A DNA stretch of 24,000 nt from Aeoliella straminimaris (GTDB lineage Bacteria; Planctomycetota; Planctomycetia; Pirellulales; Lacipirellulaceae): assembly GCF_024054565.1 (NCBI RefSeq), contig NZ_JAMXLR010000095.1:165966-189965 (forward strand), written 5' to 3'. The translations under genes and the position numbers were made by a program. Positions 2,590 through 16,019 of the stretch are shown piece after piece; positions within the stretch are counted from its first letter, which is position 1; each line of letters begins with the position of its first letter. The notes beneath the pieces were generated by a model that was not told the origin of the DNA, ran no database searches, and saw nothing but the letters and a program-made list of their open reading frames with translations.

Positions 2590-5500
2590 ATGAAACGCTC
2601 GTCCTTCGTTGTTTGCTTCGCTGCGCTCGCTTGTTCTTGCGTGACCGCCCTGCCCTCGCTGGCCGCCGACGAAATTGGCTTTGTCGAAACGTTTGCGCTG
2701 GCTGAGGACCGGGCCGAGGTACTCGGGCAGTTGATACCGGGCACCGAGGAGTACTATTTTTATCACGCGCTGCATTATCAGAACACAAAACAGTCGGAGA
2801 AGCTTGACGACTTGCTGGACAAATGGCGCAAGCGAGTTGAAGCCTCTGAACTCCGCAATCTGATTGTGCGTCGGCAACGACTGCTAGCGTACGACAGCGA
2901 TCCGAAAGCGACCCTCGATTGGCTACGCAACGAACTGGGTATTCAATTTGCCCACCAGCGCAGTCCCGAGCCCGGGCAGAAACCAAACTTGCCCACCGTG
3001 CTCGACCCTGCGGTAATCAGCCGACAGGCATACATTCAGCGGGCCATCGACCAGCATGACAACCTGGCTGGCTTCCAGGACACGGCGCTCGACTGGATAC
3101 TCCGCGATGGCGGCGTGGAACTCACCTCCGGCCGGCGGAGGGCCCTGTTGTCACGCATCGATCGTCCCGACTACGACAATCTGGTCGAGTTGATTGCGGC
3201 TGACCTCCGCACGAAGGAAAGCCGTGGTTTTGGCGAGTTCAAGATCCACCGGCAACTGCTCAAATCACAACTGGACGCGCTGCTGGACTTGAAGCCCGAC
3301 CTCCGCACCAATTCGAACTTCATTCATACCAATCTGGTGAAGCTCGCGCCGAACGCCGATGCCGATCCGAGCGATACGGAAGTCCGGGAGGCATATCTGC
3401 AGCGCATGTGGGCGTATGTGAAAGATTTGCCACCGGCTCACAATTCGCTGAAGGCGAACATCCTGTACGCCTTGCTCGATCATCAGCGGCAAGCCGGAAA
3501 GTACAATCGCACGCTGTTCGAGGTCTACGTGAAGCAGCCCCGGCCGATGCCCTATATGGATCCCCGCTACCTGAACAGCGACCCGGTGCGGCGCTACCAG
3601 GTGAATCTGGGACAGGACTTCTCGCCCATCACGCGATGTCCGCCGGTGGGCGACGATACGACCCTGGTGCGAGACTATCTGCTGCATTTCTTGGTTGAAC
3701 AGGACGACATTGCGCCATGGAGCGAGTGGATACGCGACACTTTCGTCAGACCGCTACTGGCCGAGGCGAAAATTGTCTCGGGTGGTCCGGATTCCGAGCG
3801 ATGGGCGTCGATGCTCACGCCATCGGCCTACCAACAGCTGAAGGACCGGGTCGACATCGATCTGGCGGTGACAAACCCACAGCAGTTCGACATGGATGAC
3901 GAAGTCACGTTGGCGGCGGACATCAAGAATGTCGACAAGCTGCTGGTCAAGGTCTATGAGGTCAACGCCTTTAACGTCTATCTCGCTACGCACCGAGAGG
4001 TAAGCACCGGTCTGGAGTTGGATGGCCTGGTGGCTGGTTCGCAGCAGGTATATGCGTACAGCGAAACCCCTTTCCGACGTGTGCGGCGCGAGTTTACGTT
4101 CCCTGAACTCGAAGGCAAACGCGGCGTCTGGATGATCGAGCTGATCGGTGGCGGGCGAAGCAGTCGCGCCCTGGTCCGGAAGGGCGGACTGCACTATCTC
4201 GCGCGGCAAGGCGTGGCGGGCACGGTGCTGTCGATTCTGGACGAACAAGACAATCCGGCTCCCAAGGCATCGGTCTGGCTAGCTGGCCGCGAGTACAAGC
4301 CCGACGAACAAGGTGGCATTGTCGTTCCGTACTCCTCCGACCCGGGCCGCCACCCCATCATCCTCCGCGATGCTGATGGCTTCGCTTCGCTAGCCTATTT
4401 TCAGCATCCTGCGGAATCCTACACGCTGGACGTTGGTTTCTTCGTCGACCGCGAGGCGCTGCTGGTTGGCGGTGAGGCTACCCTGCTGGTCCGCCCCGAT
4501 TTTCGCATCAACGGCGTGGCCGCTCCTTTGGACTTGCTGGAGCAGGTGAAATTGACGATCACGTCGACCAACCTCGACGGCATCAGCACTACGGCCGAGG
4601 TGGACGATTTCCAACTTCACAGCGACAAGGAAACCGAGCACCAGTTCGCCGTACCGCCTCGGCTGGCCACACTGAGTTTCCAGCTCAGTGCTCAGGTCGA
4701 GCAGGTGAGCACCGGCAAGAAGGTCTCGCTGTCCAGCAATGGCCTGCGCAGCGTCAACGGCATCGACAAGGAGGAATCGACCTACGAACTCCACCTAAGC
4801 CACATGGACGGGCACGCCGTAGTTGAAGTGCTGGGGAAGAACGGCGAGCGTCTGGCGGACCGCGCCGTATGGCTCGTGTTTCAACATCGCGACTTCAAGA
4901 CAAACCACGGTGTGTCTCTCAAATCCGATGAAGCGGGGCGAATCGATCTTGGCACCCTGCCCGACATTGTGCGGGTGACGGCCAATGCCGATGGCATCGA
5001 CGAGGTGGCGTGGGACATCGCTGCAGGAGAAGACGCCCACAGCCGCCCCGCAGTGCTGCAGACCGTGCAGGGCGAGGCGCTACACGTACCCCACCTAGGC
5101 GGTGCGAAACTGTCGCGGGCCGACTACTCCCTGCTAGCAGTTCGTCGCGGCAACTTTACAACCGACCAGTTCGGCAAGCTCTCCGTGGCCGGCGGATTCC
5201 TGTTAATTGAAGGCCTTGAACCGGGCGACTACAGTCTAAAGATCAAACGCGAAAACCGTGTCATTCCGATTCGCGTCACGGCCGGCAAAATGGTGGGACG
5301 ATTCGCTGCTGGCAAGCATCGAATTCTCGAAACAGCCCACCGACTGCCTCTGCATATTACCGCCGTGGCCGACGACAACGGTGACTTGCTGGTCAAGCTC
5401 GCCAACGCCGAACAGGGTACGCGGGTACATGTGCTGGTATCGAGGTTCAAACCGGCGTTTCCACTGCACGGGGCTCTGGGTGCCGCGTACGATCCCACCT

Positions 5501-8500
5501 TGCTGACTATTACTCGTCCCGCATTTCGCAATGTCTATCTGAGCGGTCGCGACATAGGCGACGAGTATCGCTACATCCTCGATCGCCGCGATCAGACAAC
5601 CTACCCGGGCAACATGCTCGATCGACCAGGATTGCTACTCAATCCGTGGGAGCTCCGTGACACCGATACGGGGAAGCAACAGGCCGCCACTGGTGGCGAG
5701 TATCAGGACGCGTCGGGCAGCACACCGTCTTCAGAAATGGCCATGGAGCCGCCACCGGCAGAAGCCCGGCATCAACTTGCGGACTTGTCGAACCTCGACT
5801 TTTTGAAGCATGCCGGCGTGGTGCTCGCGAATCTCACACCTGGTAAAGACGGCATCGTCCGCATTCCCAAGGAGCAGCTCAGCGATCGCCAGGACGTACA
5901 TATCGTGGCCATCGGCTCCACCGACACGGTGTTCCGACATGTGTCGTTGCCCGATGCTGGTGCCGCATTCCGCGACCTCCGTTTGGCTAAGCCGCTTGAT
6001 TTAAAGAAGCACTTCACCGAACGCAAGGAGGTGGCTCTGCTGGGCGAGGGCGACCAACTTGAGATTCCGGATGTTCGCGCGGCCGAAATGCAGGGGTACG
6101 ACACGCTGGCTTCGATCTATAGCTTGTACATGACCCGCTCGGGCAATCCCACGCTGGCCGAATTCGCCTTCGTGCTGAAATGGGATGCATTGGACGCTGC
6201 CGAGCAACGTTCGGAGTACTCGAAGTACGCCTCGCACGAGTTGAGTTTCTACCTGAGTCGTAAGGATCCTGAGTTCTTCGAGCAGGTTATTCTGCCCTAC
6301 TTGAAAAACAAGAAGGACAAGACCTTCATCGATCACTATTTGTTGAAGGACGACCTGAGCGAATTCTTGGATCCGTGGCGGTATGGCCGACTGAACATGG
6401 CCGAGCGCGTGCTGCTGGCCGACCGTCTGGGCGACGCGGAGCGCGACGCGACCAGGCGTCACCTGGAGGACCTGTTCGCCCAGTTGCCGCCCAACCCGTC
6501 CAAGAGTCAGAGCGAGTTCCTGACCGCGTTGCGAGGCCGATCGCTCACTGCCGATTCTGGAGTGGGTGGCGTAACGCTCAGCTTCGACAGGTTTGGCGGT
6601 TTCAGGGATGGCGAAGCGGACGCGGATGCGGAGCACTTGACCGATCGTTTTGACGCCGCCGCGAGTGCGCGGGCAGTCGACCAACCCACCTTGGCAGCGG
6701 GGCCGCCGCATGCAGGAAGCCCTATCTCTGGTGACAAATTGGCTGAACTAGAGAGTCTGGAAGCGGCTCAACGTGTGAGGAGTGCCGTGGAAGAGAGAAA
6801 GAAAGATCTGAAGCTACAAGAGCTCAACGCGGATTTGAGTTTTGCCTATGATCGCGCAGGTGGTCGCCGTGCTGGGGAGTTAGAACTGTTGCGTCGCAAG
6901 CGGGTGCGTGGTTTTTATCGCAGGATGTCGGCGGTGAAAGAGTGGGCCGAAAATAACTACTACCACCTGCCCATCGAGCAGCAGCTGGCGGACCGCGTAG
7001 CGATCAATGCCTTCTGGCGCGACTATGCCGCGCACCTGGCAGACAACGCCGACGAGCCATTCCTCTCGAAGCACGTGGCTGTGCCTACTTCGAACTTCAG
7101 CGAGATGATGCTAGCCCTGGCGGTACTCGACCTGCCCGTCGAGGCCGCCGAAGCCGAGGTAACCACCGACGCAGCGTCCCTGACCTTGAAGGTGGGTTCG
7201 CCTACCATTGTGTTCCACAAGCAAATTCAGGAAGCTGCCGAAAGCGACGACAAAACACCTGTGTTAGTGGGGCAGAATTACTTCCGCCACGGCGATCGGT
7301 ACGTGCAGGTCGATGGCGAGCAGCGTGACAAGTACGTCACCGACGAGTTCCTGCCTGGCGTCGTGTACGGGTGCCAGGTTGTGGTGACCAATCCCACTTC
7401 GGCCACGCAGAAACTCGATGTCTTGACACAAATTCCCGAGAAGGCAATGCCGGTCTTGGGTAGCAAGCAGACTTACAGCTTGCCGGTGCAACTTGGTCCC
7501 TATGCCACGCAAAAGCTGGAGTATTATTTTTACTTCCCGCGTACTGGCGACTTTGCTCATTACCCGGTTCAAGTCGCCCGCGACGAGCAACTGGCCGCCT
7601 GGGCCGAGCCCTTCACCTTTCACGTAGTCGAGCAGTTAAGCCGCATCGACAAGGCGTCATGGGACTACCTGTCGCAGTGGGGTACGTCCGACGAGGTGCT
7701 GAGCTACCTTCAGCAGAACAACATCGAACGCATCGATCTGGCCCGCATCGCATGGCGGATGCGGGATGTCGATTTCTTTAAGCAGACGCTCGAGCTGCTA
7801 GCCAAGCGGCACGTGTACAACCCCGTGCTGTGGAGCTACGCGATTTACCACAACCAACTTGACCGGATCCAACAGTATCTGCGTACGAACGACGAGTTTC
7901 TCCGCCGTTTTGGTGAGCGGATTGATTGCACGCTGGTCACGGTCGATCCGGTGGAGCGGCATTGGATTCAGCACCTGGAGTACAGCCCGCTGGTAAATGC
8001 CCGCGCCCATCGCTTGGGCCGCGATCGCAAGATCGTGAATGCCGCATTCGGCGAGCAGTACCATCGCTTGATGAACGTGCTGCGGTACAAGTCCAGGCTA
8101 TCCGAAGAGGACAAGCTCGACGTGGTGTATTACCTGTTCCTGCAGGACCGCATCGGCGAGGCTCTGGAGTGGTTCGACGAAATCGACGCCGAGAAACTGC
8201 CCACGGCCTTGCAGTTGGATTACCTGCGATGCTACGTGGCGTTCTACCGCGAGCAACCCGAGGCGGCCGAACAGATCGCCAAGCAGTATGCCGATTACCC
8301 TGTGGACCGGTGGCGAGCGCGATTCGCCAACGTGCTCTCGCAGATTGGCGAAATCCGTGGCGGCCAGGTAGCCGATAGCGGTGGTGACGAAGACCAACGC
8401 GAAGGGCTGCAGGACGAATTGGCTTCCACCGAGCCAGCACTCGAAATGAAGGTTGAGAACGGTCAGGTGCAGTTGACCTACCAGAATCTCGAGCAGGTGA

Positions 8501-9003
8501 CTGTGAACTACTACGAGATGGACGTCGAGTTCCTGTTCAGTTCGAACCCCTTCGTCGAAAGCGATGCCGATCGCTTTGGTGTGATCCAGCCGAATCGCAG
8601 CGATTCCGTCGAGCTGCCCGAGCAAGGCGACCGGCACGCCGTGGATATTCCGCAGGAGTTCACCGGCAAGAATGTTCTGGTCGAAGTGCTGGGCTCTGGC
8701 CGCCGCATCGCGCAGGCTTACTACGCCAACGATCTGAAGGTGCAGCTTGTTGAGCAATACGGCCGCTTGCAGGTCCGCGACGATAAGACGAACAAGCCGC
8801 TGTCGAAGGTGTACGTCAAGGTTTATGCTCGCACGCCCCAAGGCACCCGGTTTTTCAAGGATGGGTACACCGACTTGCGTGGTAAGTTCGACTACACAAG
8901 TCTCAACACCGACGACATCGGCGGTGTCAGCGAGTTTGCCGTGCTGGTGATGAGCAGCGACCACGGGGCCGTAGTGTTGACGGCCAAGCCGCCACAGCAA
9001 TAG
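2590..9003 (+). CDS. giant secreted protein (2137 aa), function unknown; C-terminal carboxypeptidase-regulatory-like/beta-sandwich-like segment
   Basis: Single uninterrupted 6.4-kb ORF. N-terminal signal peptide MKRSSFVVCFAALACSCVTALPSLAADE. The C-terminal stretch KVYVKVYARTPQGTRFFKDGYTDLRGKFDY resembles prealbumin-fold (CarboxypepD_reg-like) domains. No catalytic motif was recognised by eye. Confidence 0.85.
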   Translation: MKRSSFVVCFAALACSCVTALPSLAADEIGFVETFALAEDRAEVLGQLIPGTEEYYFYHALHYQNTKQSEKLDDLLDKWRKRVEASELRNLIVRRQRLLAYDSDPKATLDWLRNELGIQFAHQRSPEPGQKPNLPTVLDPAVISRQAYIQRAIDQHDNLAGFQDTALDWILRDGGVELTSGRRRALLSRIDRPDYDNLVELIAADLRTKESRGFGEFKIHRQLLKSQLDALLDLKPDLRTNSNFIHTNLVKLAPNADADPSDTEVREAYLQRMWAYVKDLPPAHNSLKANILYALLDHQRQAGKYNRTLFEVYVKQPRPMPYMDPRYLNSDPVRRYQVNLGQDFSPITRCPPVGDDTTLVRDYLLHFLVEQDDIAPWSEWIRDTFVRPLLAEAKIVSGGPDSERWASMLTPSAYQQLKDRVDIDLAVTNPQQFDMDDEVTLAADIKNVDKLLVKVYEVNAFNVYLATHREVSTGLELDGLVAGSQQVYAYSETPFRRVRREFTFPELEGKRGVWMIELIGGGRSSRALVRKGGLHYLARQGVAGTVLSILDEQDNPAPKASVWLAGREYKPDEQGGIVVPYSSDPGRHPIILRDADGFASLAYFQHPAESYTLDVGFFVDREALLVGGEATLLVRPDFRINGVAAPLDLLEQVKLTITSTNLDGISTTAEVDDFQLHSDKETEHQFAVPPRLATLSFQLSAQVEQVSTGKKVSLSSNGLRSVNGIDKEESTYELHLSHMDGHAVVEVLGKNGERLADRAVWLVFQHRDFKTNHGVSLKSDEAGRIDLGTLPDIVRVTANADGIDEVAWDIAAGEDAHSRPAVLQTVQGEALHVPHLGGAKLSRADYSLLAVRRGNFTTDQFGKLSVAGGFLLIEGLEPGDYSLKIKRENRVIPIRVTAGKMVGRFAAGKHRILETAHRLPLHITAVADDNGDLLVKLANAEQGTRVHVLVSRFKPAFPLHGALGAAYDPTLLTITRPAFRNVYLSGRDIGDEYRYILDRRDQTTYPGNMLDRPGLLLNPWELRDTDTGKQQAATGGEYQDASGSTPSSEMAMEPPPAEARHQLADLSNLDFLKHAGVVLANLTPGKDGIVRIPKEQLSDRQDVHIVAIGSTDTVFRHVSLPDAGAAFRDLRLAKPLDLKKHFTERKEVALLGEGDQLEIPDVRAAEMQGYDTLASIYSLYMTRSGNPTLAEFAFVLKWDALDAAEQRSEYSKYASHELSFYLSRKDPEFFEQVILPYLKNKKDKTFIDHYLLKDDLSEFLDPWRYGRLNMAERVLLADRLGDAERDATRRHLEDLFAQLPPNPSKSQSEFLTALRGRSLTADSGVGGVTLSFDRFGGFRDGEADADAEHLTDRFDAAASARAVDQPTLAAGPPHAGSPISGDKLAELESLEAAQRVRSAVEERKKDLKLQELNADLSFAYDRAGGRRAGELELLRRKRVRGFYRRMSAVKEWAENNYYHLPIEQQLADRVAINAFWRDYAAHLADNADEPFLSKHVAVPTSNFSEMMLALAVLDLPVEAAEAEVTTDAASLTLKVGSPTIVFHKQIQEAAESDDKTPVLVGQNYFRHGDRYVQVDGEQRDKYVTDEFLPGVVYGCQVVVTNPTSATQKLDVLTQIPEKAMPVLGSKQTYSLPVQLGPYATQKLEYYFYFPRTGDFAHYPVQVARDEQLAAWAEPFTFHVVEQLSRIDKASWDYLSQWGTSDEVLSYLQQNNIERIDLARIAWRMRDVDFFKQTLELLAKRHVYNPVLWSYAIYHNQLDRIQQYLRTNDEFLRRFGERIDCTLVTVDPVERHWIQHLEYSPLVNARAHRLGRDRKIVNAAFGEQYHRLMNVLRYKSRLSEEDKLDVVYYLFLQDRIGEALEWFDEIDAEKLPTALQLDYLRCYVAFYREQPEAAEQIAKQYADYPVDRWRARFANVLSQIGEIRGGQVADSGGDEDQREGLQDELASTEPALEMKVENGQVQLTYQNLEQVTVNYYEMDVEFLFSSNPFVESDADRFGVIQPNRSDSVELPEQGDRHAVDIPQEFTGKNVLVEVLGSGRRIAQAYYANDLKVQLVEQYGRLQVRDDKTNKPLSKVYVKVYARTPQGTRFFKDGYTDLRGKFDYTSLNTDDIGGVSEFAVLVMSSDHGAVVLTAKPPQQ

Positions 9004-9295: not shown

Positions 9296-10945
<1,650 letters not shown>

Positions 10946-10970
10946 CTCGACCTCCTTTCAGTGAAAAATA

Positions 10971-11088
10971 CCCGACGAAGCTTGGGCCGAGTTGCCGCGT
11001 CACAGACGCTGGAAGCTCCCGCTTCCGTGGCTACCGACGGGTGTTACCCCGACTCGGTTCGTGGATGTACTCCGCACCGACAGTCGGA
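10971..11088 (-). ncRNA. Y-RNA-like module 5, embedded in the rsr 5' leader (degenerate distal domain)
   Basis: The 5' strand UCCGAC-UG-UCGGUGC-GGAG-UACAU (from 11088) and the 3' strand CUCGG-N10-GUCGGG (to 10971) match the family pattern. The distal part keeps a decayed T-arm (CGGG-GUAACA-CCCG) and hairpins GGAAGC-GGGA-GCUUCC and GCGUC-UGU-GACGC. It is followed by UAUUUUU and then the rsr RBS. Confidence 0.5.
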
Positions 11089-11116
11089 CGTGTCTGGTAG
11101 TTGTTTATCAAAGGAT

Positions 11117-11256
11117 CCCGACGAGGGATTGCATTAGAGACTTTACGGCGAGCTACCATTGCTCCACGGCGCGACCGTTTCCTCGAAATGGCGCCGACGG
11201 GACTCGAACCCGTAACCTCCGGCGTGTGATGCATGTACTCCAACACGGCAGTCGGG
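11117..11256 (-). ncRNA. Y-RNA-like module 4 with a circularly permuted tRNA-like domain (YrlA-type architecture)
   Basis: Closing stem CCCGAC (11256-11251) / GUCGGG (11122-11117), plus UGGAG/CUCUA. The distal domain reads 5'->3': T-arm ACGGG-UUCGAGU-CCCGU, closed acceptor-like hairpin CGGCGC...GCGCCG (inner UUUC-GAG-GAAA), then U-G, then D-arm GAGC-AAUGGUA-GCUC. Confidence 0.65.
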
Positions 11257-11276
11257 ATATACGTGTGCGATAAATT

Positions 11277-11406
11277 GATCGACGAGGGGGCGACCAGAGA
11301 TATTTCTCATTGCTCTACCAACTGAGCTACATCGACGCCTGGCGCCGACGACGGGGATCGAACCCGTGACTCATGAGTTAACATGTACTCTAATCTGCAG
11401 TCGATC
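11277..11406 (-). ncRNA. Y-RNA-like module 3 with a circularly permuted tRNA-like domain (YrlA-type architecture)
   Basis: Three-segment closing stem: GAUCGAC (11406-11400) / GUCGAUC (11283-11277), UAGAG/CUCUG, and CUCAU/AUGAG. The distal domain is T-arm ACGGG-UUCGAUC-CCCGU, a closed acceptor-like hairpin CGUCGGCG..CGUCGAUG (8-9 bp), then U-A in the tRNA position 8-9 register, then D-arm GCUC-AGUUGGUA-GAGC. Confidence 0.7.
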
Positions 11407-11423
11407 GTAGGTTTGTGTTGAGT

Positions 11424-11585
11424 CCGACGAAGTGGTGGCGAGAGTTGCGTTTACGATCGTCCGTGCCCCCGTATGGAGGTCGTTGACTGGCCCCTTTGTC
11501 TCGGAGAGACTTTGGCGCCGTTCACTAGTCCGTCGCCCGACATCGCTACCTTAGGACCGTCATGTACTCCCAACCGTCAGTCGGG
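11424..11585 (-). ncRNA. Y-RNA-like module 2 (family closing stem, degenerate distal domain)
   Basis: 5' strand CCCGAC-UG-ACGGUUG-GGAG-UACAU (from 11585); 3' strand CUCUC-N11-GUCGG (to 11424). The interior holds an acceptor-hairpin-like GGCGCC-AAA-GUCUC-UCC-GAGAC-AAA-GGGGCC but no clean T or D arms. Confidence 0.5.
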
Positions 11586-11595
11586 CTATGTCAAA

Positions 11596-11669
11596 GACCA
11601 GCCAACGAAGATTTGGTTCGGATAAGGTCATCATTTCAGGATGTAGTCCGAACCGGCAGTTGACTGGTC
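11596..11669 (-). ncRNA. Y-RNA-like module 1 (minimal, stem-loop only)
   Basis: Self-contained hairpin. GACCAGUCAAC (11669-11659) pairs over 11 bp with GUUGGCUGGUC (11606-11596), and an inner helix GGUUCGGA/UCCGAACC follows. It carries the family motifs UG...GGAC-UACAU and CUUC-GUUG. It starts 2 nt after the tRNA-Cys discriminator. Confidence 0.6.
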
Positions 11670-11671
11670 AA

Positions 11672-11743
11672 AGACGCCGGTGGGAATCGAACCCACGAAA
11701 AACTGCTTTGCAGACAGCCGCCCGACCATCAGGCTTCAGCGTC
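11672..11743 (-). tRNA. tRNA-Cys(GCA), divergent (A8 instead of U8)
   Basis: Hand-folded cloverleaf, 72 nt. Acceptor GACGCUG/CGGCGUC. D-arm GCCU-GAUGGUC-GGGC. Anticodon arm GCUGU-CUGCAAA-GCAGU. Variable loop UUUUC. T-arm GUGGG-UUCGAUU-CCCAC. U73 discriminator, which is the Cys identity element. No encoded CCA. Confidence 0.7.
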
Positions 11744-11748
11744 TTGGC

Positions 11749-11848
11749 GAATGCGGAAGTGGGAATTCGGAATGCGGAATCTAACGCAAGCGAGCGTTAA
11801 GTATCGCCTGCGGGTGATTCCGCCTTCCGCATTCCGAACTCCGCATTC
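11749..11848 (-). other. about 100-nt branched inverted-repeat spacer between tRNA-Arg(GCG) and tRNA-Cys
   Basis: Outer 9 bp GAAUGCGGA/UCCGCAUUC. Inner 11 bp GGAAUGCGGAA/UUCCGCAUUCC. Apical hairpins GCGG-AAUCAC-CCGC and UAACGC-UCGCUU-GCGUUA. Built from repeated GAATGCGGAA units. Confidence 0.6.
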
Positions 11849-11852
11849 AGAG

Positions 11853-11924
11853 CAGCCCGTCCAGGAATCGAACCTGGCCTTCGACCTTCGCACGGTCGCG
11901 TGCAATCCTCTACACTCACAGGCT
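11853..11924 (-). tRNA. tRNA-Arg(GCG), divergent (G8 instead of U8)
   Basis: 72-nt cloverleaf. Acceptor AGCCUGU/ACGGGCU (7 bp). D-arm GUGU-AGAGGAUU-GCAC. Anticodon arm CGACC-GUGCGAA-GGUCG. Variable loop AAGG. T-arm CCAGG-UUCGAUU-CCUGG. Discriminator G. Confidence 0.7.
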
Positions 11925-11927
11925 ATA

Positions 11928-11995
11928 GGAGTATTCGGGGATCAGGATTCAGGGAAAGAAGGACGCGCGTCCTCCCCCTGATCCCTCACCCCTCC
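11928..11995 (-). other. about 68-nt structured hairpin spacer
   Basis: GGAG/CUCC plus a perfect 9 bp GGGAUCAGG/CCUGAUCCC enclose AGGAC-GCGC-GUCCU and GGG/CCC pairings. It lies between the Arg(UCG)-like element and tRNA-Arg(GCG). Confidence 0.55.
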
Positions 11996-12001
11996 ACAAA
12001 G

Positions 12002-12071
12002 TACCTCGCCAGGGAATCGAACCTCGTCTTGCAGATTCGAAGTCTGCGATGCTATCCAGCACACCCACACG
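12002..12071 (-). pseudogene. tRNA-Arg(UCG)-like element, probably decayed
   Basis: Perfect anticodon arm GCAGA-CUUCGAA-UCUGC and a UUCGAUU T-loop. However, the T-stem has an A.C mismatch, the D-arm is truncated (GUGC-UGGAUA-GCAU), and I could not pair the acceptor strands. Confidence 0.35.
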
Positions 12072-12079
12072 GCGTGTAA

Positions 12080-12168
12080 TATTTCGACCTGGAATCGAAC
12101 CAGGACTTGGACTTTAGGAGAGTCCTGTGCGATCCGCCCCGTTTCCAATAAACACTGTCCATCGAGAT
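12080..12168 (-). pseudogene. tRNA-Arg(CCU)-like element with an expanded D region
   Basis: Perfect T-arm CCUGG-UUCGAUU-CCAGG and anticodon arm GGACU-CUCCUAA-AGUCC. The acceptor ATCTCGA/TCGAAAT pairs 6 of 7. The D stem GUGU/GCAC would enclose a 21-nt loop. Total 89 nt. Confidence 0.4.
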
Positions 12169-12389
12169 TTGAGGCCGATCCTCGTGCGCCGGGAGACTTG
12201 CACTAGCATCACCCGGCCACCTGTAGTGACTTCGCTTGAACAACAAAGGTTCATTAAAGGTGATGCGAGCATCACTGCCGCTTCTGAGAATATGCTTGAC
12301 ACTTTACCAGCCGGAATCGAAAATGCGGGCATTCAACAATCATTACGCTGTTACTCATCTCGGTCAGCATACTACTTGGAGCCGAGCTA

Positions 12390-13694
12390 ATGACGCTGAG
12401 CAAAAAACTGACTTACCGGTTAAATCCGTTGCACCTAAAACGCTTGGTTCGAGTTGCAGTACTTGTTGCGTTCTATTTGCATTTTAGTTCTAAGGATTTT
12501 GTCTTAGGGATGTCGCCTGAATCCGCATTGGCTACTGTGGAACTGGTGGCAGATTTCGATACTCAGATTCCAGAAAAGCTGTCTAATTTTTCGAGCCTAG
12601 GTCAACGAGCCGCTATCAGCGAATCATCGGTATTCTTCACCGGCAATAACGGGCTCTACAAGGCCGATGGCGACTCACTTGTTCGGATCGTCGATAACAG
12701 CACGCCAATTCCAGGTAAATCATCGAACTTTGTAGGAGTGTCAAACGAGACTTTATTAGTGGATGATGGTGACGTGGCCTTTGATGGCACAGAAATCTTC
12801 GGATTTCGAAACGGCATCTATGTTTATAGCTCGTCCACAGACAGTATCACGTTCATAGCTGACGAAGACTCGGCGGTGCCAAATGGTACTGGGAGCTTTG
12901 CCGGCTTTCGCGCGCCTTCTATCAACAATGGAAATGTCGCCTTCTTTGGGTTCAGTGACCCGTCGTCCCAGAATGGCATATACACCACGCTGGGGGGACA
13001 ACTCCGCGTTGTTGCAGACACCAATACTATTATCCCTGGCGGCTCCGGACCGTTCAGTGATCTACTCGGATTCCCCGTCATTGAAGGCGATAGCATCACA
13101 TTTGTAGGAAGACGCTTCAATGAAAGCCAGGGAATCTACAGAGAGTCAGGTGGCACACTGTCTACTCTCTATGATCTGACCACTTCCATCCCAGGTGGTT
13201 CGGGAAGTTTTACAAGTTTCCGAAACAATGAGTTGAATGTCGAAGGCGGTTCTTTGGCCTTTATGGGCGGTGGAGCAGGCGGATACTTTGGAGTCTTTAA
13301 GGATGTGGGAGACGGTCTTACTCTAGTCGCCGACTCGAGTACGCAGGCTCCCGGTGGGACAAATACCTTCCTCGCTATTAGCAACGTTTCATTGGACGGC
13401 GAAAATGTTGCCTTTATTGGGAGCGATGGTGGTACTCGTGGAATCTATACAGATGCTCTCGGCCAATTAACAAAGATTCTAGATACGTCGGATATCATTG
13501 ATGGTCGACAGCCCAGCGAATTTCACATTGGCCGGGACTCCTTGGTTGGGAATCAGTTGGCATTTCGGGTGCGTTTTACTGACAACACTGAGAGCATCTA
13601 TGTCGCAACTCTTGTTCCTGAACCATCTACCCTGGTCGCATTCCTATTGGCCACGGCGTGTTTAGTTATGTGCCGAAATTCCTTTAGGCATTAG
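12390..13694 (+). CDS. PEP-CTERM-anchored repeat protein (about 7 repeats of a roughly 50-aa GIY...AD..T.IPGG.G.F...G..VAF.G unit)
   Basis: 434-aa ORF. C-terminal VPEPSTLVAFLLATACLVMCRNSFRH is a PEP motif followed by a TM helix and a basic tail. The N-terminus is hydrophobic. The sequence is visibly more AT-rich than its flanks. The start codon is uncertain (alternative Met41). Confidence 0.85.
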   Translation: MTLSKKLTYRLNPLHLKRLVRVAVLVAFYLHFSSKDFVLGMSPESALATVELVADFDTQIPEKLSNFSSLGQRAAISESSVFFTGNNGLYKADGDSLVRIVDNSTPIPGKSSNFVGVSNETLLVDDGDVAFDGTEIFGFRNGIYVYSSSTDSITFIADEDSAVPNGTGSFAGFRAPSINNGNVAFFGFSDPSSQNGIYTTLGGQLRVVADTNTIIPGGSGPFSDLLGFPVIEGDSITFVGRRFNESQGIYRESGGTLSTLYDLTTSIPGGSGSFTSFRNNELNVEGGSLAFMGGGAGGYFGVFKDVGDGLTLVADSSTQAPGGTNTFLAISNVSLDGENVAFIGSDGGTRGIYTDALGQLTKILDTSDIIDGRQPSEFHIGRDSLVGNQLAFRVRFTDNTESIYVATLVPEPSTLVAFLLATACLVMCRNSFRH

Positions 13695-13717
13695 CATGCT
13701 TCGAAATGGGGTCATAG

Positions 13718-13787
13718 CACGAGCGCAAGGATTCGAACCCTGTCCGTCAGTTTTGGAGGCTGACTGCTCTCCCAGGAGCACACTCGC
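13718..13787 (-). tRNA. tRNA-Trp(CCA), short and divergent
   Basis: 70 nt. Acceptor GCGAGUG/CGCUCGU. Compact D region UGCUCCUGGGAGAGCAG. Anticodon arm UCAGC-CUCCAAA-ACUGA with a C31.A39 mismatch (alternatively a 5-bp stem with a 9-nt loop). T-arm CAGGG-UUCGAAU-CCUUG. G73 as in bacterial tRNA-Trp. Confidence 0.6.
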
Positions 13788-13793
13788 ATAATA

Positions 13794-13869
13794 GGTGACC
13801 GAGCGGAATCGAACCGCCGTCGTACGGAATCACAGTCCGTCTCCGGAAACCAGCACCGGACCCGGCCAC
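13794..13869 (-). tRNA. tRNA-His(GUG), divergent (5-bp D stem, G8, no encoded G-1 in the main register)
   Basis: 76 nt. Acceptor GUGGCCG/CGGUCAC. D-arm UCCGG-UGCUGGUUU-CCGGA. Anticodon arm ACGGA-CUGUGAU-UCCGU. T-arm GGCGG-UUCGAUU-CCGCU. C73 discriminator. Confidence 0.65.
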
Positions 13870-13871
13870 AG

Positions 13872-13961
13872 CGGAAGGCGTGGGATTCGAACCCACATGC
13901 CGCCTTCTGAGCGACTTCGCATTAGCAGTGCGACCCGGCAAGCCGTATCCGGCTACCTTCC
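13872..13961 (-). tRNA. tRNA-Ser(GCU), class II with a long variable arm (A8)
   Basis: 90 nt. Acceptor GGAAGGU/GCCUUCC. D-arm CCGG-AUACGGCUUG-CCGG. Anticodon arm UCGCA-CUGCUAA-UGCGA. 20-nt variable arm (GUCGC...GCGGC). T-arm GUGGG-UUCGAAU-CCCAC. G73. It starts 2 nt upstream of tRNA-His. Confidence 0.75.
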
Positions 13962-13972
13962 GTATTTTTCAG

Positions 13973-14043
13973 TGGACCCACCGAGAATCGAACTCGGATC
14001 TCCGACCAGCCAAGCCAGCGTCGTCCCGTTGGACCATGAGCCC
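13973..14043 (-). tRNA. tRNA-Ala(GGC), divergent
   Basis: 71 nt. Acceptor GGGCUCA/UGGGUCC with the G3.U70 Ala identity pair, and A73. D-arm UG-GUCCAACGGGACGAC. Anticodon arm CUGGC-UUGGCUG-GUCGG (two G.U pairs, U37). T-arm CCGAG-UUCGAUU-CUCGG. Confidence 0.7.
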
Positions 14044-14053
14044 TCGTGTTGAG

Positions 14054-14124
14054 TGGAGCGTCGGGGAATCGAACCCCGATTGCCTGGGTGCAAACCAAGC
14101 GTCTTCCCGTTGGACCAACGCCCC
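14054..14124 (-). tRNA. tRNA-Ala(UGC), divergent
   Basis: 71 nt. Acceptor GGGGCGU/ACGCUCC with G3.U70, and A73. D-arm UG-GUCCAACGGGAAGAC. Anticodon arm CUUGG-UUUGCAC-CCAGG. T-arm CGGGG-UUCGAUU-CCCCG. Confidence 0.8.
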
Positions 14125-14139
14125 GTCGCCTTCTATTAG

Positions 14140-14265
14140 AGGTCCGTCCGGGAATTGAACCCGAGCAGTATTTGTTCTTGCTACCGCCTTCGCCCTTCAT
14201 CTTCGCTATCGCTCGGCGGGCTCAGTTGCTACCAAGAACGTGTGCCGCCAAAACACTTACAGACC
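14140..14265 (-). ncRNA. tRNA-like RNA with about 54 extra nt replacing the anticodon loop
   Basis: Acceptor GGUCUGU/ACGGACC (7 bp). D-arm GUGU-UUUGGCG-GCAC. T-arm UCGGG-UUCAAUU-CCCGG. The 76-nt middle forms a 7-bp stem GUUCUUG/CAAGAAC plus CCGCC/GGCGG, capped by a purine-rich 26-nt loop. No 7-nt anticodon loop was found. Confidence 0.55.
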
Positions 14266-14271
14266 AAGCTT

Positions 14272-14345
14272 GGCTATCAGCTGTTAGCTATTGACTATAA
14301 GCCAGAATCGTCTGGCCCACAGCTTATAGCCAACAGCCGATAGCC
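14272..14345 (-). other. 74-nt hairpin spacer with a 20-bp stem
   Basis: Arms at 14272-14291 and 14326-14345 pair over 20 bp. The two non-Watson-Crick positions are G.U on the minus-strand RNA but A.C on the plus strand. Apical CCAGA-CGAU-UCUGG hairpin. It sits between tRNA-Val and the insertion-bearing tRNA-like RNA. Confidence 0.6.
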
Positions 14346-14352
14346 CAACCAA

Positions 14353-14425
14353 TGATCCCGGATGGAGTCGAACCATCGCTCTCCTGGTTGTCATCCAGGC
14401 GTCGTAACCGTTGGACCACGGGATC
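14353..14425 (-). tRNA. tRNA-Val(GAC), divergent D-arm
   Basis: 73 nt. Acceptor GAUCCCG/CGGGAUC (perfect). U8. D-arm GUCCAACGGUUACGAC. Anticodon arm CCUGG-AUGACAA-CCAGG. Variable loop AGAGC. T-arm GAUGG-UUCGACU-CCAUC. A73. Confidence 0.8.
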
Positions 14426-14460
14426 GTGGCGTGCTCCGACTAGGCTGGTAGTGGCCACAG

Positions 14461-14520
14461 AAAAAGGTCCACTGTCGCTGCTGACACCGGGCCTTTTTCC
14501 GATGAGCTCTGTGGCTCATC
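14461..14520. other. two adjacent hairpins at the upstream edge of the tRNA array (terminator-like / insulator)
   Basis: 14461-14498: AAAAAGGTCC...GGGCCTTTTT, a 10-bp stem with an inner TGTC/GACA helix and A/T runs on both sides. 14501-14520: GATGAGC-TCTGTG-GCTCATC, a perfect 7-bp stem. Confidence 0.45.
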
Positions 14521-14973
14521 TTCGAGTTAGACCAGGTGTCACCAACGCCTTGCCTCACCGGCGTACGCAGACCTCGAACGGCAACTTGCCCCGTGAGCAA
14601 ATGTAGTCGCATACCGTTTAACGGCCTGCGGCGATCGCCAATGCGACGCCGGTTCGATATTTGATCTTGTATGCAGCATTGAAGGTCCCTCCAACTGATC
14701 GATACCCCGAGGGCGAAGTTGATCGTGTCTCGCGGTCTCTCTGTAAGAGTGCCGAATCGTCAAATGGTTCGTGCAGAAATCAAAGCACTTGTGCAAAGAA
14801 GTCGGAAATCATTCGTTACCGCTCGGTGGAGAGGCAGTCTCCCGAAGTTTGGTCCGCAGTAGACCGGCGGACGGACATGGAGACTATTCCTCCAAAAGTA
14901 GTATCGCCTCTGGAGCTCACCACACTTTGGGTAACACCCCAGCGGAGGCGGGGTCGTCAGCCGTTCCGAAAAC

Positions 14974-15004
14974 GAAAAAAGCTCCTCGAATTCGAGGAGC
15001 TTTT
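14974..15004 (-). terminator. rho-independent terminator downstream of tRNA-Lys
   Basis: GCTCCTCG-AATT-CGAGGAGC (14981-15000) is followed on the minus strand by UUUUUU (plus-strand A-run 14975-14980). It lies 4 nt after the tRNA-Lys 3' end. Confidence 0.85.
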
Positions 15005-15008
15005 GCAG

Positions 15009-15081
<73 letters not shown>

Positions 15082-15219
15082 TTAGAAGCGACTGGCGCGG
15101 CTAAGAGAGTGTTGCAGTGTTGCCAATGGTTGGAGACTCGGTTGTCCGCGTTGCAACCTCTTGGCTGGTATCATTTTAGCGTCAAAACTCGGACGCAAAA
15201 GCCCCACAAAGGTTCGGCA

Positions 15220-15906
15220 TTACTGCCAGGTTTTCCAGCCTTTTCCGGCGATCGTCGGTTCGAAGTCTTCGCGGCCGGCGAGTTTCGCAATGGCTTTAAC
15301 GCAATCGACTGTCAACCGGGCAATCAGATCGTTGTTGCGGTCTTGGCCGTAGTGTTCGCTGAGGTCGATGGGCTCGCCGATCACCAGCTTGACTCGCGAC
15401 GGCATGAACACCGGCATCCAGGGATATTTGTGGTACGGGGTGCCTTCCAGGTAACAGGGCAGCACCGGCACTTTGGCCCTGAGGGCGACGACGATTGCTC
15501 CCGGGCGGACCGGCAGCATGAAGTCGTCGGTGGTGTTGATGGTTCCCTCGGGGAACATGCCTACCAGGTCGCCCGCTTGGGCACGGCGGATGGCCGCGCG
15601 GAGCGGCGAGACATCGTTGCCATCCTTGCGGACCGAGATCACCTCGAACACGTCGAGCATGCGGGCGATCATCGTGCCGGGCTTGTAGAGTTGAGCGACC
15701 AGCCAGTGCACGAGTCGACGCCGAGACACCACCTGAATGACACAAGGATCAACGCTGCTGCGGTGGTTGCAGATCAGCACGGCCCCTTGTTCGTCGGGCA
15801 GCGGCAGCTTGTCTGGCACCTTGGCCCACCAGATGACGCGGACGATGAACTGATTGACATAGTAGAAGCACCACTGGACGAAACTGTACGAGCGAGGTTC
15901 GGCCAT
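15220..15906 (-). CDS. 1-acyl-sn-glycerol-3-phosphate acyltransferase family protein (PlsC-like)
   Basis: 228-aa ORF with the acyltransferase motifs NHRSSVD (HX4D) and FPEGT. Confidence 0.85.
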   Translation of the reverse strand: MAEPRSYSFVQWCFYYVNQFIVRVIWWAKVPDKLPLPDEQGAVLICNHRSSVDPCVIQVVSRRRLVHWLVAQLYKPGTMIARMLDVFEVISVRKDGNDVSPLRAAIRRAQAGDLVGMFPEGTINTTDDFMLPVRPGAIVVALRAKVPVLPCYLEGTPYHKYPWMPVFMPSRVKLVIGEPIDLSEHYGQDRNNDLIARLTVDCVKAIAKLAGREDFEPTIAGKGWKTWQ

Positions 15907-16019
15907 GGATGTTCAGAGTTCGTCGAGGGGGACGCACAAATGGTAGTGGCAAGTGGCTGGCGGCGAGTGGCCACAGGCGACAAAAGTCCCTTGCCACCAG
16001 ACGTTCGCCACCGAAGTCC

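Follow-up and report, generated by a model that had tools for sequence, protein, structure and literature searches.

The subject of this paper is a block of six transfer RNA (tRNA) genes in Aeoliella straminimaris (Planctomycetota; Pirellulales), which lies at positions 13,718 to 14,425 of the window, i.e., the 24,000-nucleotide (nt) stretch of contig NZ_JAMXLR010000095.1 (positions 165,966 to 189,965) that was analyzed. The six genes, for Val(GAC), Ala(UGC), Ala(GGC), Ser(GCU), His(GUG), and Trp(CCA), are best explained, with a probability of roughly 0.7, as part of a decaying L-array, i.e., a long array of supernumerary tRNA genes of a kind found widely in Planctomycetota. Such arrays probably provide spare tRNAs that are induced by stress and are connected with the repair and quality control of RNA. 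This explanation is built on homology to the arrays of related genomes, shared gene order, truncations of individual genes, selection on tRNA structure, invariant identity elements, two alternative folds of a conserved leader, and linkage in strand and position. Moreover, the arrays are variably present among relatives.

The Six tRNA Genes and Their Unusual Cores

Genes for tRNAs were called with ARAGORN and scored against Rfam family RF00005, which has a gathering threshold of 29 bits. Ten tRNA genes were called in the window, all on the minus strand. They include the six divergent genes with exactly the anticodons that a preliminary description had read from the sequence: Val(GAC) at 14353–14425 (63 bits), Ala(UGC) at 14053–14124 (55.6 bits), Ala(GGC) at 13972–14043 (44.5 bits), Ser(GCU) at 13871–13961 (38.2 bits), His(GUG) at 13794–13869, and Trp(CCA) at 13717–13787 (32.3 bits). 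The scores of Val, both Ala genes, and Trp were obtained with default filters and that of Ser in a sensitive search only, while His gave no RF00005 match even in the sensitive search, its best match being tRNA-Sec at 25.4 bits. For comparison, a canonical, stand-alone tRNA-Lys(UUU) outside the array (15008–15081, minus strand) scores 74.8 bits. This gene is followed by its own intrinsic terminator at 15004–14977 (terminator scan) and lies where blastn found no homology to the array of the related locus L001. The preliminary description had pointed to this Lys gene as canonical and had suggested a comparison of covariance-model scores, and several array genes indeed score low relative to Lys, with His below the threshold.

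None of the six genes encodes the 3'-terminal CCA, as had been noted before. The canonical Lys(UUU) gene likewise has no CCA, and its absence is therefore no peculiarity of the array. The aminoacylation identity elements are retained as originally listed: G3.U70 together with A73 in both Ala genes, G73 and a long variable arm in Ser, C73 in His, and, read from the window sequence, A73 in Val and G73 in Trp. The reported departures from the usual tRNA core are equally real. Position 8 is A in Ser and G in His, and the D arm of His can be drawn with a stem of 5 base pairs (bp) or, alternatively, with a 3-nt connector. Ala(GGC) has U37 and two G.U pairs in its anticodon stem, and Trp belongs to a short type of 70–71 nt in total (71 nt as called), in which the connector is a single nucleotide, the D loop has 6 nt, and C31 is mismatched with A39. 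The core rules are thus broken at position 8 in Ser and His, and in the D arm and connectors of His and Trp.

The identity nucleotide of bacterial tRNA-His is normally G-1. In the window, a U at position -1 lies opposite C73, so that a genome-encoded G-1 is absent from this gene. An alternative register that would provide G-1 was rejected, since it needs a 4-bp T stem, and the standard register with U at -1 is preferred.

The genes from Ala(UGC) to Trp are separated by spacers of 1–10 nt, and every array gene of the window lies on the minus strand. The tight packing first described (2–15 nt) holds for this part but not for Val(GAC), which is 228 nt away from Ala(UGC).

Conservation of Gene Order in Related Loci

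Related loci were collected by searching a genome collection with the window Rsr protein, the product of the gene rsr that encodes the bacterial Ro60 orthologue and ends the module. The search returned 80 loci with 71–89% identity, all in Planctomycetota and mostly in Pirellulales, the best match being a Bythopirellula metagenome-assembled genome. At these loci 819 tRNA genes lie on the strand of rsr versus 2 on the opposite strand. Among the 43 loci with at least 6 kb of sequence upstream of rsr, at least one tRNA gene is present in 36, at least 10 in 24, and at least 20 in 19.

The conserved order, as seen in L001, starts with Phe, Glu, Pro, Pro, Ile, Lys, Ile(UAU), Lys, Thr, Gly, Pro, Asn, Ser, and Gly, continues with Gln, Gln, Ser, Val, Leu, Leu, Asp, Leu, Glu, Tyr, Leu, Leu, Val(GAC), and Thr(GGU), and ends with Ala(UGC), Ala(GGC), Ser(GCU), Arg(UCU), Ser(GGA), His, Trp, Thr(UGU), Arg(CCU), Arg(UCG), Arg(GCG), and Cys. 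In most rsr loci sampled, the end of the array is followed on the same strand by Y RNAs and then rsr. Intact arrays hold 40 genes in 5 kb (L001) or 41 genes in 4.5 kb (L120) and cover all 20 amino acids. Since the same genes occur in the same order in dozens of genomes, the arrangement is more than chance. No flanking gene is common to the loci, the aconitase gene, the giant open reading frame (ORF), and the DUF7453 gene of the window as well as the neighbors of the L001 array all being unshared. The conserved unit therefore consists of the array, the Y RNAs, and rsr.

A second, array-anchored set was obtained by scanning metagenome contigs for the conserved 5' end of the array Ser(GCU) gene. 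These contigs display the same order, with 1032 tRNA genes on the same strand versus 28 on the opposite strand, and with up to 41 genes (L120). L-arrays, which have also been named 'tRNA array units' (PMC4758250), are defined by a minimum of 20 tRNA genes and a minimum density of 2 genes per kb (PMC4758250, PMC8421152). L001 and L120 fall within this definition. The window does not reach 20 genes, since over 2.8 kb it has 9 intact genes and 2 truncated ones, interrupted by an insertion.

Complete genomes with intact arrays include OZ245849.1, NZ_CP036526.1, and CP197414.1. In the last of these, the genome of Kothea flammea strain SH139, two complete modules (L048 and L054) lie approximately 200 kb apart. 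The same array-rsr module, with 32 tRNA genes, was encountered in the IMG/VR contig L081, the only IMG/VR contig carrying the array, which may be a misclassified bacterial fragment. An origin from phages or plasmids was considered on the basis of nucleotide similarity and abandoned, as neither a collection of 50,697 phage records nor one of 72,556 plasmid records yielded a match.

Layout of the Window Copy

Compared with L001, the array in the window extends beyond the block that was described first and also comprises a leader, an Arg(CCU) remnant, Arg(UCG), Arg(GCG), and Cys. The complete order is leader, Val(GAC), a hairpin, a Thr remnant, Ala, Ala, Ser, His, Trp, an insertion, the Arg(CCU) remnant, Arg, Arg, Cys, Y-RNA-like units, and rsr. 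Nine intact and two truncated tRNA genes remain together with five Y-RNA-like units and rsr, and about 30 tRNA genes are gone, namely the 26 genes from Phe to Leu(GAG) as well as, among others, Arg(UCU) and Ser(GGA). As the leader is kept 5' of Val(GAC), the loss of the 26 genes is explained by an internal deletion.

The orthologue of the intact Val(GAC) gene is located at 7397–7469 in L001 and is 94.5% identical. Downstream, a blastn block (14163–13870) corresponds to L001 7523–7809 and covers the last 25 nt of Thr(GGU), both Ala genes, and Ser(GCU). As this block begins inside the L001 Thr(GGU) gene (7476–7547), the window contains a truncated Thr(GGU) pseudogene of 25 nt (14139–14163, minus strand) that retains only the T arm and the 3' strand of the acceptor stem. 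The 5' part of Thr(GGU) is replaced by approximately 190 nt that include a near-perfect, palindromic hairpin of about 80 nt (14267–14351, minus strand; fold z -7.3), without a counterpart at this place in L001. Further long, near-perfect palindromes lie between Arg(UCG), Arg(GCG), and Cys, at 11749–11848 and 11937–11994, and similar ones were seen between the leader and tRNA-Phe in L011 and L012. These palindromic hairpins may be a miniature mobile or repeat element.

A second block (13815–13713) matches the 3' part of His and Trp, after which the array is split by a foreign insertion of 1.6 kb (12137–13712, junctions set by blastn) with a GC content of 49–52% vs. approximately 60% in its flanks. 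The insertion carries a gene on the opposite strand (12390–13694, plus strand) that encodes a DUF7453 protein with a PEP-CTERM-like tail (Pfam), found at none of the 80 related loci. Thr(UGU) was displaced by the insertion, as were the first 15 nt of Arg(CCU). The remaining 3' 56 nt of Arg(CCU) form a truncated pseudogene at 12081–12136 (minus strand) that is 94.6% identical to L001 8262–8317, within the Arg(CCU) gene at 8247–8319.

From this remnant onward, Arg(UCG), Arg(GCG), Cys, the Y RNA region, and rsr follow in the same order as in L001 (blastn). Arg(UCG) (12001–12075, minus strand, ARAGORN) has mismatches in the acceptor and T stems and scores 24.6 bits vs. 43.4 bits for its L001 orthologue, and is probably degenerating. 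Arg(GCG) (11852–11924, minus strand, ARAGORN; 43.4 bits) keeps its pairing in 99.6% of cells across 34 distinct sequences. Cys(GCA) (11671–11744, minus strand, ARAGORN; 53.9 bits), with U73, is the last tRNA gene before rsr in most loci. The U37 of Ala(GGC) occurs only in the window, the orthologues having A37 or G37. By itself, the window copy is a degraded example of little value.

Selection on the Unusual tRNAs

The cloverleaves of the window genes were projected on array genes with the same anticodon from other genomes. Overall, 85–99.6% of cells were paired, and 6–15 pairs per tRNA had changed on both sides, which shows that the four-helix cloverleaf is kept by compensatory changes across homologues. 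Val(GAC) was paired in 99% of cells across 18 distinct orthologues, and Ala(GGC) in 99.6%. The two most aberrant structures behaved in the same manner: the short Trp was paired in 97.1% of cells vs. 82.7% for shuffled and 34–51% for slid controls, with 9 pairs changed on both sides, and His with its 5-bp D stem in 99.5% vs. 85.7% and 26–51%, respectively, with 10 pairs changed on both sides among 9 distinct sequences. Positions 31 and 39 of Trp are unpaired in 8 of 13 distinct sequences, so that this mismatch is a recurrent trait of the family.

The 5' end of Ser(GCU), GGAAGGUAGCCGGAUACGG, which includes A8, is identical in most array copies, and its conservation extends to over 100 contigs. 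Every array Ala gene that was aligned has G3.U70 and A73, while the rest of the acceptor stem covaries. Two classes of array His exist: one with an encoded G-1 (L001 and others), the other with a conserved U at -1 together with C73 (the window, L041, L045, L048, L063, and others). Across a census of 810 array tRNAs, U8 is present in only 62%, an approximate value since its position was taken from the ARAGORN starts, and the T loop conforms to TTCRANNC in 91%.

The D arm GGUCCAACGG, which the preliminary description had noted in Val and both Ala genes, is indeed there. It had been taken as a sign that duplication within this array, followed by a switch of anticodon or identity, had produced new isoacceptors. 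That conclusion does not hold for this genome, because the same D arm is common to the array genes for Val(GAC/UAC/CAC), Ala(GGC/UGC), and Thr(CGU) in many genomes. Moreover, the window Val and the two Ala genes are 68–70% identical to one another, compared with 94.5% between Val and its L001 orthologue. The paralogy is therefore old and predates the divergence of these organisms. Judged by their recurrence in orthologues with many compensatory changes, the short Trp, the His with a 5-bp D stem, the Ser with A8, and the GGUCCAACGG D arm are selected traits of a tRNA family and not noise.

A Conserved Leader Upstream of the Array

A conserved leader was located at 14457–14550 (minus strand), 31 nt upstream of Val(GAC), by a covariance model (R1), alignment, and folding. 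In the family, the leader measures approximately 80 nt and consists of the box UGUGACAC, a variable small hairpin, and a AAGGCCCGGUGUCAC...GACAUCGGGCCUUUUUUCGU hairpin of 13 bp with 3 covarying pairs, followed by a U-run. The window leader has the box GGUGACAC, the small hairpin, and the terminator-like hairpin with its U-run, of which the 3' arm is degenerate. R1 was trained on 17 other loci, excluding the window, and matches the window with 38.7 bits (E 2.4e-6). Each locus has a single match, located immediately 5' of the first tRNA gene regardless of its identity, and the model also detects array-anchored metagenome arrays without rsr, including L120. In L001 the leader lies at 3853–3927. 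A sensitive search of positions 11000–16000 returned no Rfam family for the leader.

The box and the sequence GUGUCAC, which is part of the 5' terminator arm, are complementary, and L045 and L025 combine a C-to-U substitution in the box with a compensating G-to-A substitution in the arm. When the nascent transcript was folded up to the terminator loop, the minimum free energy (MFE) structure paired the box with the arm in 20 of 21 leaders, and in the remaining leader the true box pairs too. At full length, 20 of the 21 leaders have the terminator as their MFE structure. Only the window leader deviates, as three substitutions in the 3' arm of its terminator make the antiterminator the full-length MFE structure. 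The predicted layout is that of a classical terminator/antiterminator attenuator, and the window remnant may represent either constitutive read-through of a weakened terminator, with a few of its tRNAs perhaps still in use, or plain decay. A start-stop mini-ORF (ATG-TGA) in the leader box was considered and dropped, because it has no ribosome-binding site and its start codon is not conserved in the leader alignment. An NtrC-type activator of sigma-54 (receiver, AAA+, and HTH_8 domains) is encoded at 1–1323 on the plus strand of the window; it has no apparent link to the array, sigma-54 matches being at chance level.

These findings also bear on a different explanation, in which the window array is a dead relic, i.e., the decaying remnant of a horizontally acquired element that is no longer expressed or used and whose intact genes have just not yet decayed. 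The two truncated tRNA genes, the hairpin insertions, and the split by a low-GC segment with an opposite-strand gene would all fit, and so would the 2–3 mismatches in the leader terminator, the low score of Arg(UCG) relative to its orthologue, the window-specific U37 in Ala(GGC), and the fact that 9 of about 40 genes are too few to decode all codons. However, no stem is incomplete in Val, the two Ala genes, Ser, His, Trp, Arg(GCG), or Cys, and the leader box, the Y RNAs, and rsr are intact and contiguous. Moreover, the differences from the closest orthologues are largely compensatory, 23 of the 38 differing pairs being changed on both sides and 30 being standard pairs in both sequences, in a count that is biased toward the window structure. 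A dead relic is therefore considered unlikely, albeit the most plausible of the competing explanations.

Probable Supernumerary Status of the Array

The number of array genes at rsr loci ranges from 0 to 40, and some loci, including ones in complete genomes, lack the array or retain only Cys. Strain SH139 has 96 tRNA genes compared with 43–67 in its relatives (PMC13190842), and its two modules hold 23 and 21 array tRNAs. Members of the Lacipirellulaceae have 46–77 tRNA genes per genome (PMC13315336). Because both tRNA counts (43–96 genes) and arrays vary between close relatives, the arrays are probably supernumerary.

Canonical tRNA genes were encountered near several arrays, including Lys(UUU) in the window, Ser(GCU) in L005, Ala(CGC) and Arg(ACG) in L013, and Met in L033. 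They score 62–75 bits, and the array genes 26–77 bits, mostly approximately 40–60 (Rfam tRNA family). Where an array gene shares its anticodon with one of these canonical genes, as for Lys(UUU) and Ser(GCU), the two differ strongly. The census of 810 array tRNAs contains no Arg(ACG), 37 Arg(GCG), and 37 Arg(UCG), the latter two occurring in almost every array; Ile(UAU) is present in 18 loci, and A34 is almost absent. Conversion of A34 to inosine needs TadA and formation of lysidine needs TilS, both of which are essential modification enzymes. The array repertoire thus appears to avoid the two anticodons that depend on modification by these enzymes.

The same data argue against the possibility that the array is simply a housekeeping operon that contains the only genes for these isoacceptors, their odd appearance being the planctomycete norm. 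Its cloverleaves and identity elements are clearly under selection, Trp, His, and Cys are single-anticodon families, and genes without CCA are normal here, Lys included. Nevertheless, among close relatives the arrays are present, absent, duplicated, or reduced, and related strains differ from 43 to 96 in tRNA number. Furthermore, this genome tolerates the loss of about 30 array genes and the truncation of Thr and Arg, the array versions of Lys(UUU) and Ser(GCU) occur alongside canonical genes that they hardly resemble, and Arg(ACG), missing from the arrays, exists as a stand-alone gene in L013. A housekeeping operon is accordingly improbable.

Y-RNA-Like Units, rsr, and Genes Embedded in Arrays

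Five tandem Y-RNA-like units, recognized by eye and by folding, occupy 10965–11667 (minus strand) between tRNA-Cys and rsr. They span approximately 11667–11598, 11586–11422, 11407–11273, 11258–11112, and 11089–10965, and all of them share a terminal stem as well as two motifs, CGACUG...GAGUACAU and CUUCGUCGG. The third and fourth units (11407–11273 and 11258–11112) contain a probable tRNA-like domain of the YrlA type. The Rfam YrlA model yields 35.5 and 34.9 bits in the window and 52.1 bits in L001, relative to a gathering threshold of 69. The 5' motif of the units is found 168 times in 111 kb just upstream of rsr vs. 23 times in 2.38 Mb elsewhere, an enrichment of approximately 150-fold, and up to six units occur in tandem at related loci.

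The last gene of the module, rsr (9296–10945, minus strand), is an ORF of 549 amino acids (aa) with TROVE and vWA_Ro60 domains (Pfam). The NCBIfam Rsr model matches its product with an E value of 1.7e-22, which is below the equivalog cut-off. Convergent with rsr lies a giant ORF of 2137 aa (2590–9003, plus strand) without a Pfam match.

Protein-coding genes embedded in the arrays are always on the array strand. An HNH endonuclease gene follows His in 14 of the 81 loci anchored on rsr and in 30 of the 80 anchored on the array, and an SPFH/Band_7 gene is found in 8 rsr-anchored and 7 array-anchored loci. A gene for a protein of approximately 276 aa without a Pfam or NCBIfam match follows Arg(UCU) in 9 and 6 loci, respectively; its sites include L048 6146–6976, L050 3765–4595, L052 5175–6005, L057 6265–7095, and L010 292–1107. 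Genes for RNA ligases sit just upstream of the Y RNAs and rsr, i.e., an ATP-dependent RNA ligase of the DraRnl family in L063 (6386–7447; TIGR02306, 196.6 bits) and PF09414 RNA ligases in L036 (7869–8657), L020 (approximately 7052), and L026 (approximately 489). Other inserts are a 2OG-Fe(II) oxygenase gene in L056 and L070, an OLD-like ATPase (AAA/TOPRIM) gene in L070 (6210–8231), a group II intron in L013 (6540–8847; Rfam, 64 bits), and a DUF4291 gene in L001 (5400–5999). The window has no HNH, SPFH, 276-aa protein, RNA ligase, 2OG oxygenase, OLD-like, or group II intron insert.

In five array-anchored contigs (L120 8252–9364, L112, L111, L117, and L091), rsr is replaced downstream of the array by an SPFH/Band-7 gene of 370 aa. 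SPFH genes were also located at 6381–7490 in L073 and, as a short paralogue, at 6292–7149 in L041 and elsewhere. Full-length homologues of the HNH protein, 33–37% identical, occur on Nostoc plasmids, one of them directly upstream of a classical cyanobacterial L-array of 24 genes, and many phage homologues exist as well.

The tRNA-like domains within the adjoining Y RNAs, the broken core rules (U8 in 62%, His without G-1), and the proposal of a sponge role by the authors of the Anabaena L-array study (PMC8421152) would suit array RNAs that act outside translation as cofactors, decoys, or substrates of the Ro60-Y RNA (and SPFH) machinery, or that might serve as nuclease sponges or tethers like the YrlA tRNA-like domain, but such a role is very doubtful given the complete, conserved repertoire for 20 amino acids, the invariant identity elements, the canonical anticodon and T loops, and the existence of arrays without rsr or Y RNAs.

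Proposed Function of the Module

Under the preferred explanation of a spare tRNA set, the leader terminator would normally keep the array off, and translational stress or RNA damage would lead to read-through of the leader. RNase P, RNase Z, and the CCA-adding enzyme would then release a spare set of chargeable tRNAs, whose divergent bodies and anticodons (Arg GCG and UCG but not ACG; Ile UAU) could free them from the need for some host modifications and protect them from nucleases directed at housekeeping tRNAs. Co-expressed Ro60-Y RNA, SPFH protein, and RNA ligase would clear or mend damaged RNA. The more far-reaching version of this model is tentative: it holds that the module is an undescribed planctomycete stress operon, in which a new leader gates a complete alternative tRNA set that is independent of some modifications and resistant to nucleases, together with Y RNAs and Ro60 and often with RNA ligase and SPFH proteins. 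If this were true, the Ro60-Y RNA particle would be directly involved in replacing or clearing damaged tRNAs, and Y RNAs of the YrlA type might have arisen from such arrays.

Several points weigh against the explanation of the array as a stress-inducible spare set. An obligatory linkage of the array to rsr was rejected by the array-anchored scan, as only 4 of the 12 contigs with at least 3.5 kb of downstream sequence carry rsr and 5 carry the SPFH gene instead. Co-transcription of array, Y RNAs, and rsr is predicted purely from orientation and spacing, and the putative antiterminator from conserved complementarity with only one clear compensatory event (L045/L025). Scans for sigma-70 and sigma-54 promoters gave nothing above chance; the single sigma-70-like site, on the wrong strand, is fewer than chance would yield. 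By the usual bacterial rules, a His without G-1 should be a poor substrate for histidyl-tRNA synthetase. For Trp, His, Cys, Val(GAC), and Ala, the housekeeping genes that a spare set implies are presumed to lie elsewhere in this genome. Finally, the function of the unit may have been lost from the window copy through its two truncations, the split, the degenerate terminator, the poor Arg(UCG), and U37.

Long tRNA arrays and bacterial Ro60-Y RNA particles have each been studied in one or two experimental systems. The fused, co-oriented module is found in dozens of planctomycete genomes and metagenome contigs and includes a candidate riboregulator, which makes the inducer of the array, the charging of the odd tRNAs, and the action of Ro60 on tRNAs amenable to experiments, for which cultivable strains with intact arrays are Stieleria marina K23_9 and strain SH139. 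For genome annotation, the arrays explain planctomycete tRNA counts that range from approximately 45 to approximately 95, and the low-scoring array tRNAs should be treated as a selected family and not as noise.

Comparison with Known Systems

Long supernumerary tRNA arrays have been described before, and both surveys name the Planctomycetes among the phyla with arrays (PMC4758250, PMC8421152). The L-array of Anabaena (PCC 7120) is silent and induced by translational stress, i.e., by ribosome-targeting antibiotics, and in vivo aminoacylation was shown for 23 of its 26 tRNAs; it has a conserved HNH endonuclease gene as a neighbor, is co-regulated with HNH and rtcB, and a sponge role is one of the options proposed by the authors (PMC8421152). 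The planctomycete arrays resemble the cyanobacterial ones in their dozens of co-oriented, tightly spaced, probably supernumerary tRNA genes for most amino acids, their patchy occurrence, the presence of Ile(UAU), frequent insertions, deletions, and pseudogenes, and a neighborhood rich in genes for RNA repair and processing. Moreover, the planctomycete HNH protein belongs to the same family as, and is over its full length 33–37% identical to, the HNH protein of the Nostoc array. In contrast, the gene order differs from that of the Nostoc array, Arg(ACG) is missing, and the array is fused to tandem Y RNAs and rsr or an SPFH gene. Control differs as well: the planctomycete leader resembles a terminator/antiterminator and is absent from the Nostoc locus, whereas the control element of Anabaena consists of direct repeats in the promoter. 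The window copy additionally departs from the L-arrays in that it has only 9 intact genes, short of the 20-gene definition.

The second group of related systems consists of the Ro60-Y RNA modules. Salmonella rsr-yrlBA-rtcBA and the Rsr/Y RNA/PNPase system of Deinococcus likewise combine a protein with TROVE and vWA domains with adjacent Y RNAs (PMC4201824, PMC7790460). Two Y-RNA-like units of the window probably share the YrlA-type tRNA-like domain with them, and there is a thematic tie to tRNA damage and RNA ligases. Unlike these modules, the planctomycete loci have up to six Y-RNA-like units upstream of rsr with a tRNA array before them, and their YrlA scores (35–52 bits) stay under the Rfam threshold; unlike in Salmonella, no rtcBA or RtcR gene adjoins the window rsr. 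SPFH and TROVE proteins have reportedly been linked to tRNA-like RNAs by Burroughs and Aravind in 2016.

The third parallel is with the tRNA clusters of T4 and jumbo phages, which replace cleaved host tRNAs and are accompanied by RNA ligases and sometimes a TROVE protein (PMC7824862). The planctomycete module shares with these clusters a private tRNA set with divergent tRNA bodies that is combined with a TROVE protein, an endonuclease of the HNH or homing type, and an RNA ligase, and differs from them in being chromosomal and conserved across genera, with a single IMG/VR contig as the only viral record. A search of the accessible literature returned no published link of tRNA arrays with Ro60 or Y RNAs, or of Planctomycetes with Ro60 biology, and no report of the leader. 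Relative to these known systems, the physical fusion of a tRNA array to tandem Y RNAs and rsr (or an SPFH gene) and the attenuator-like leader appear to be new.

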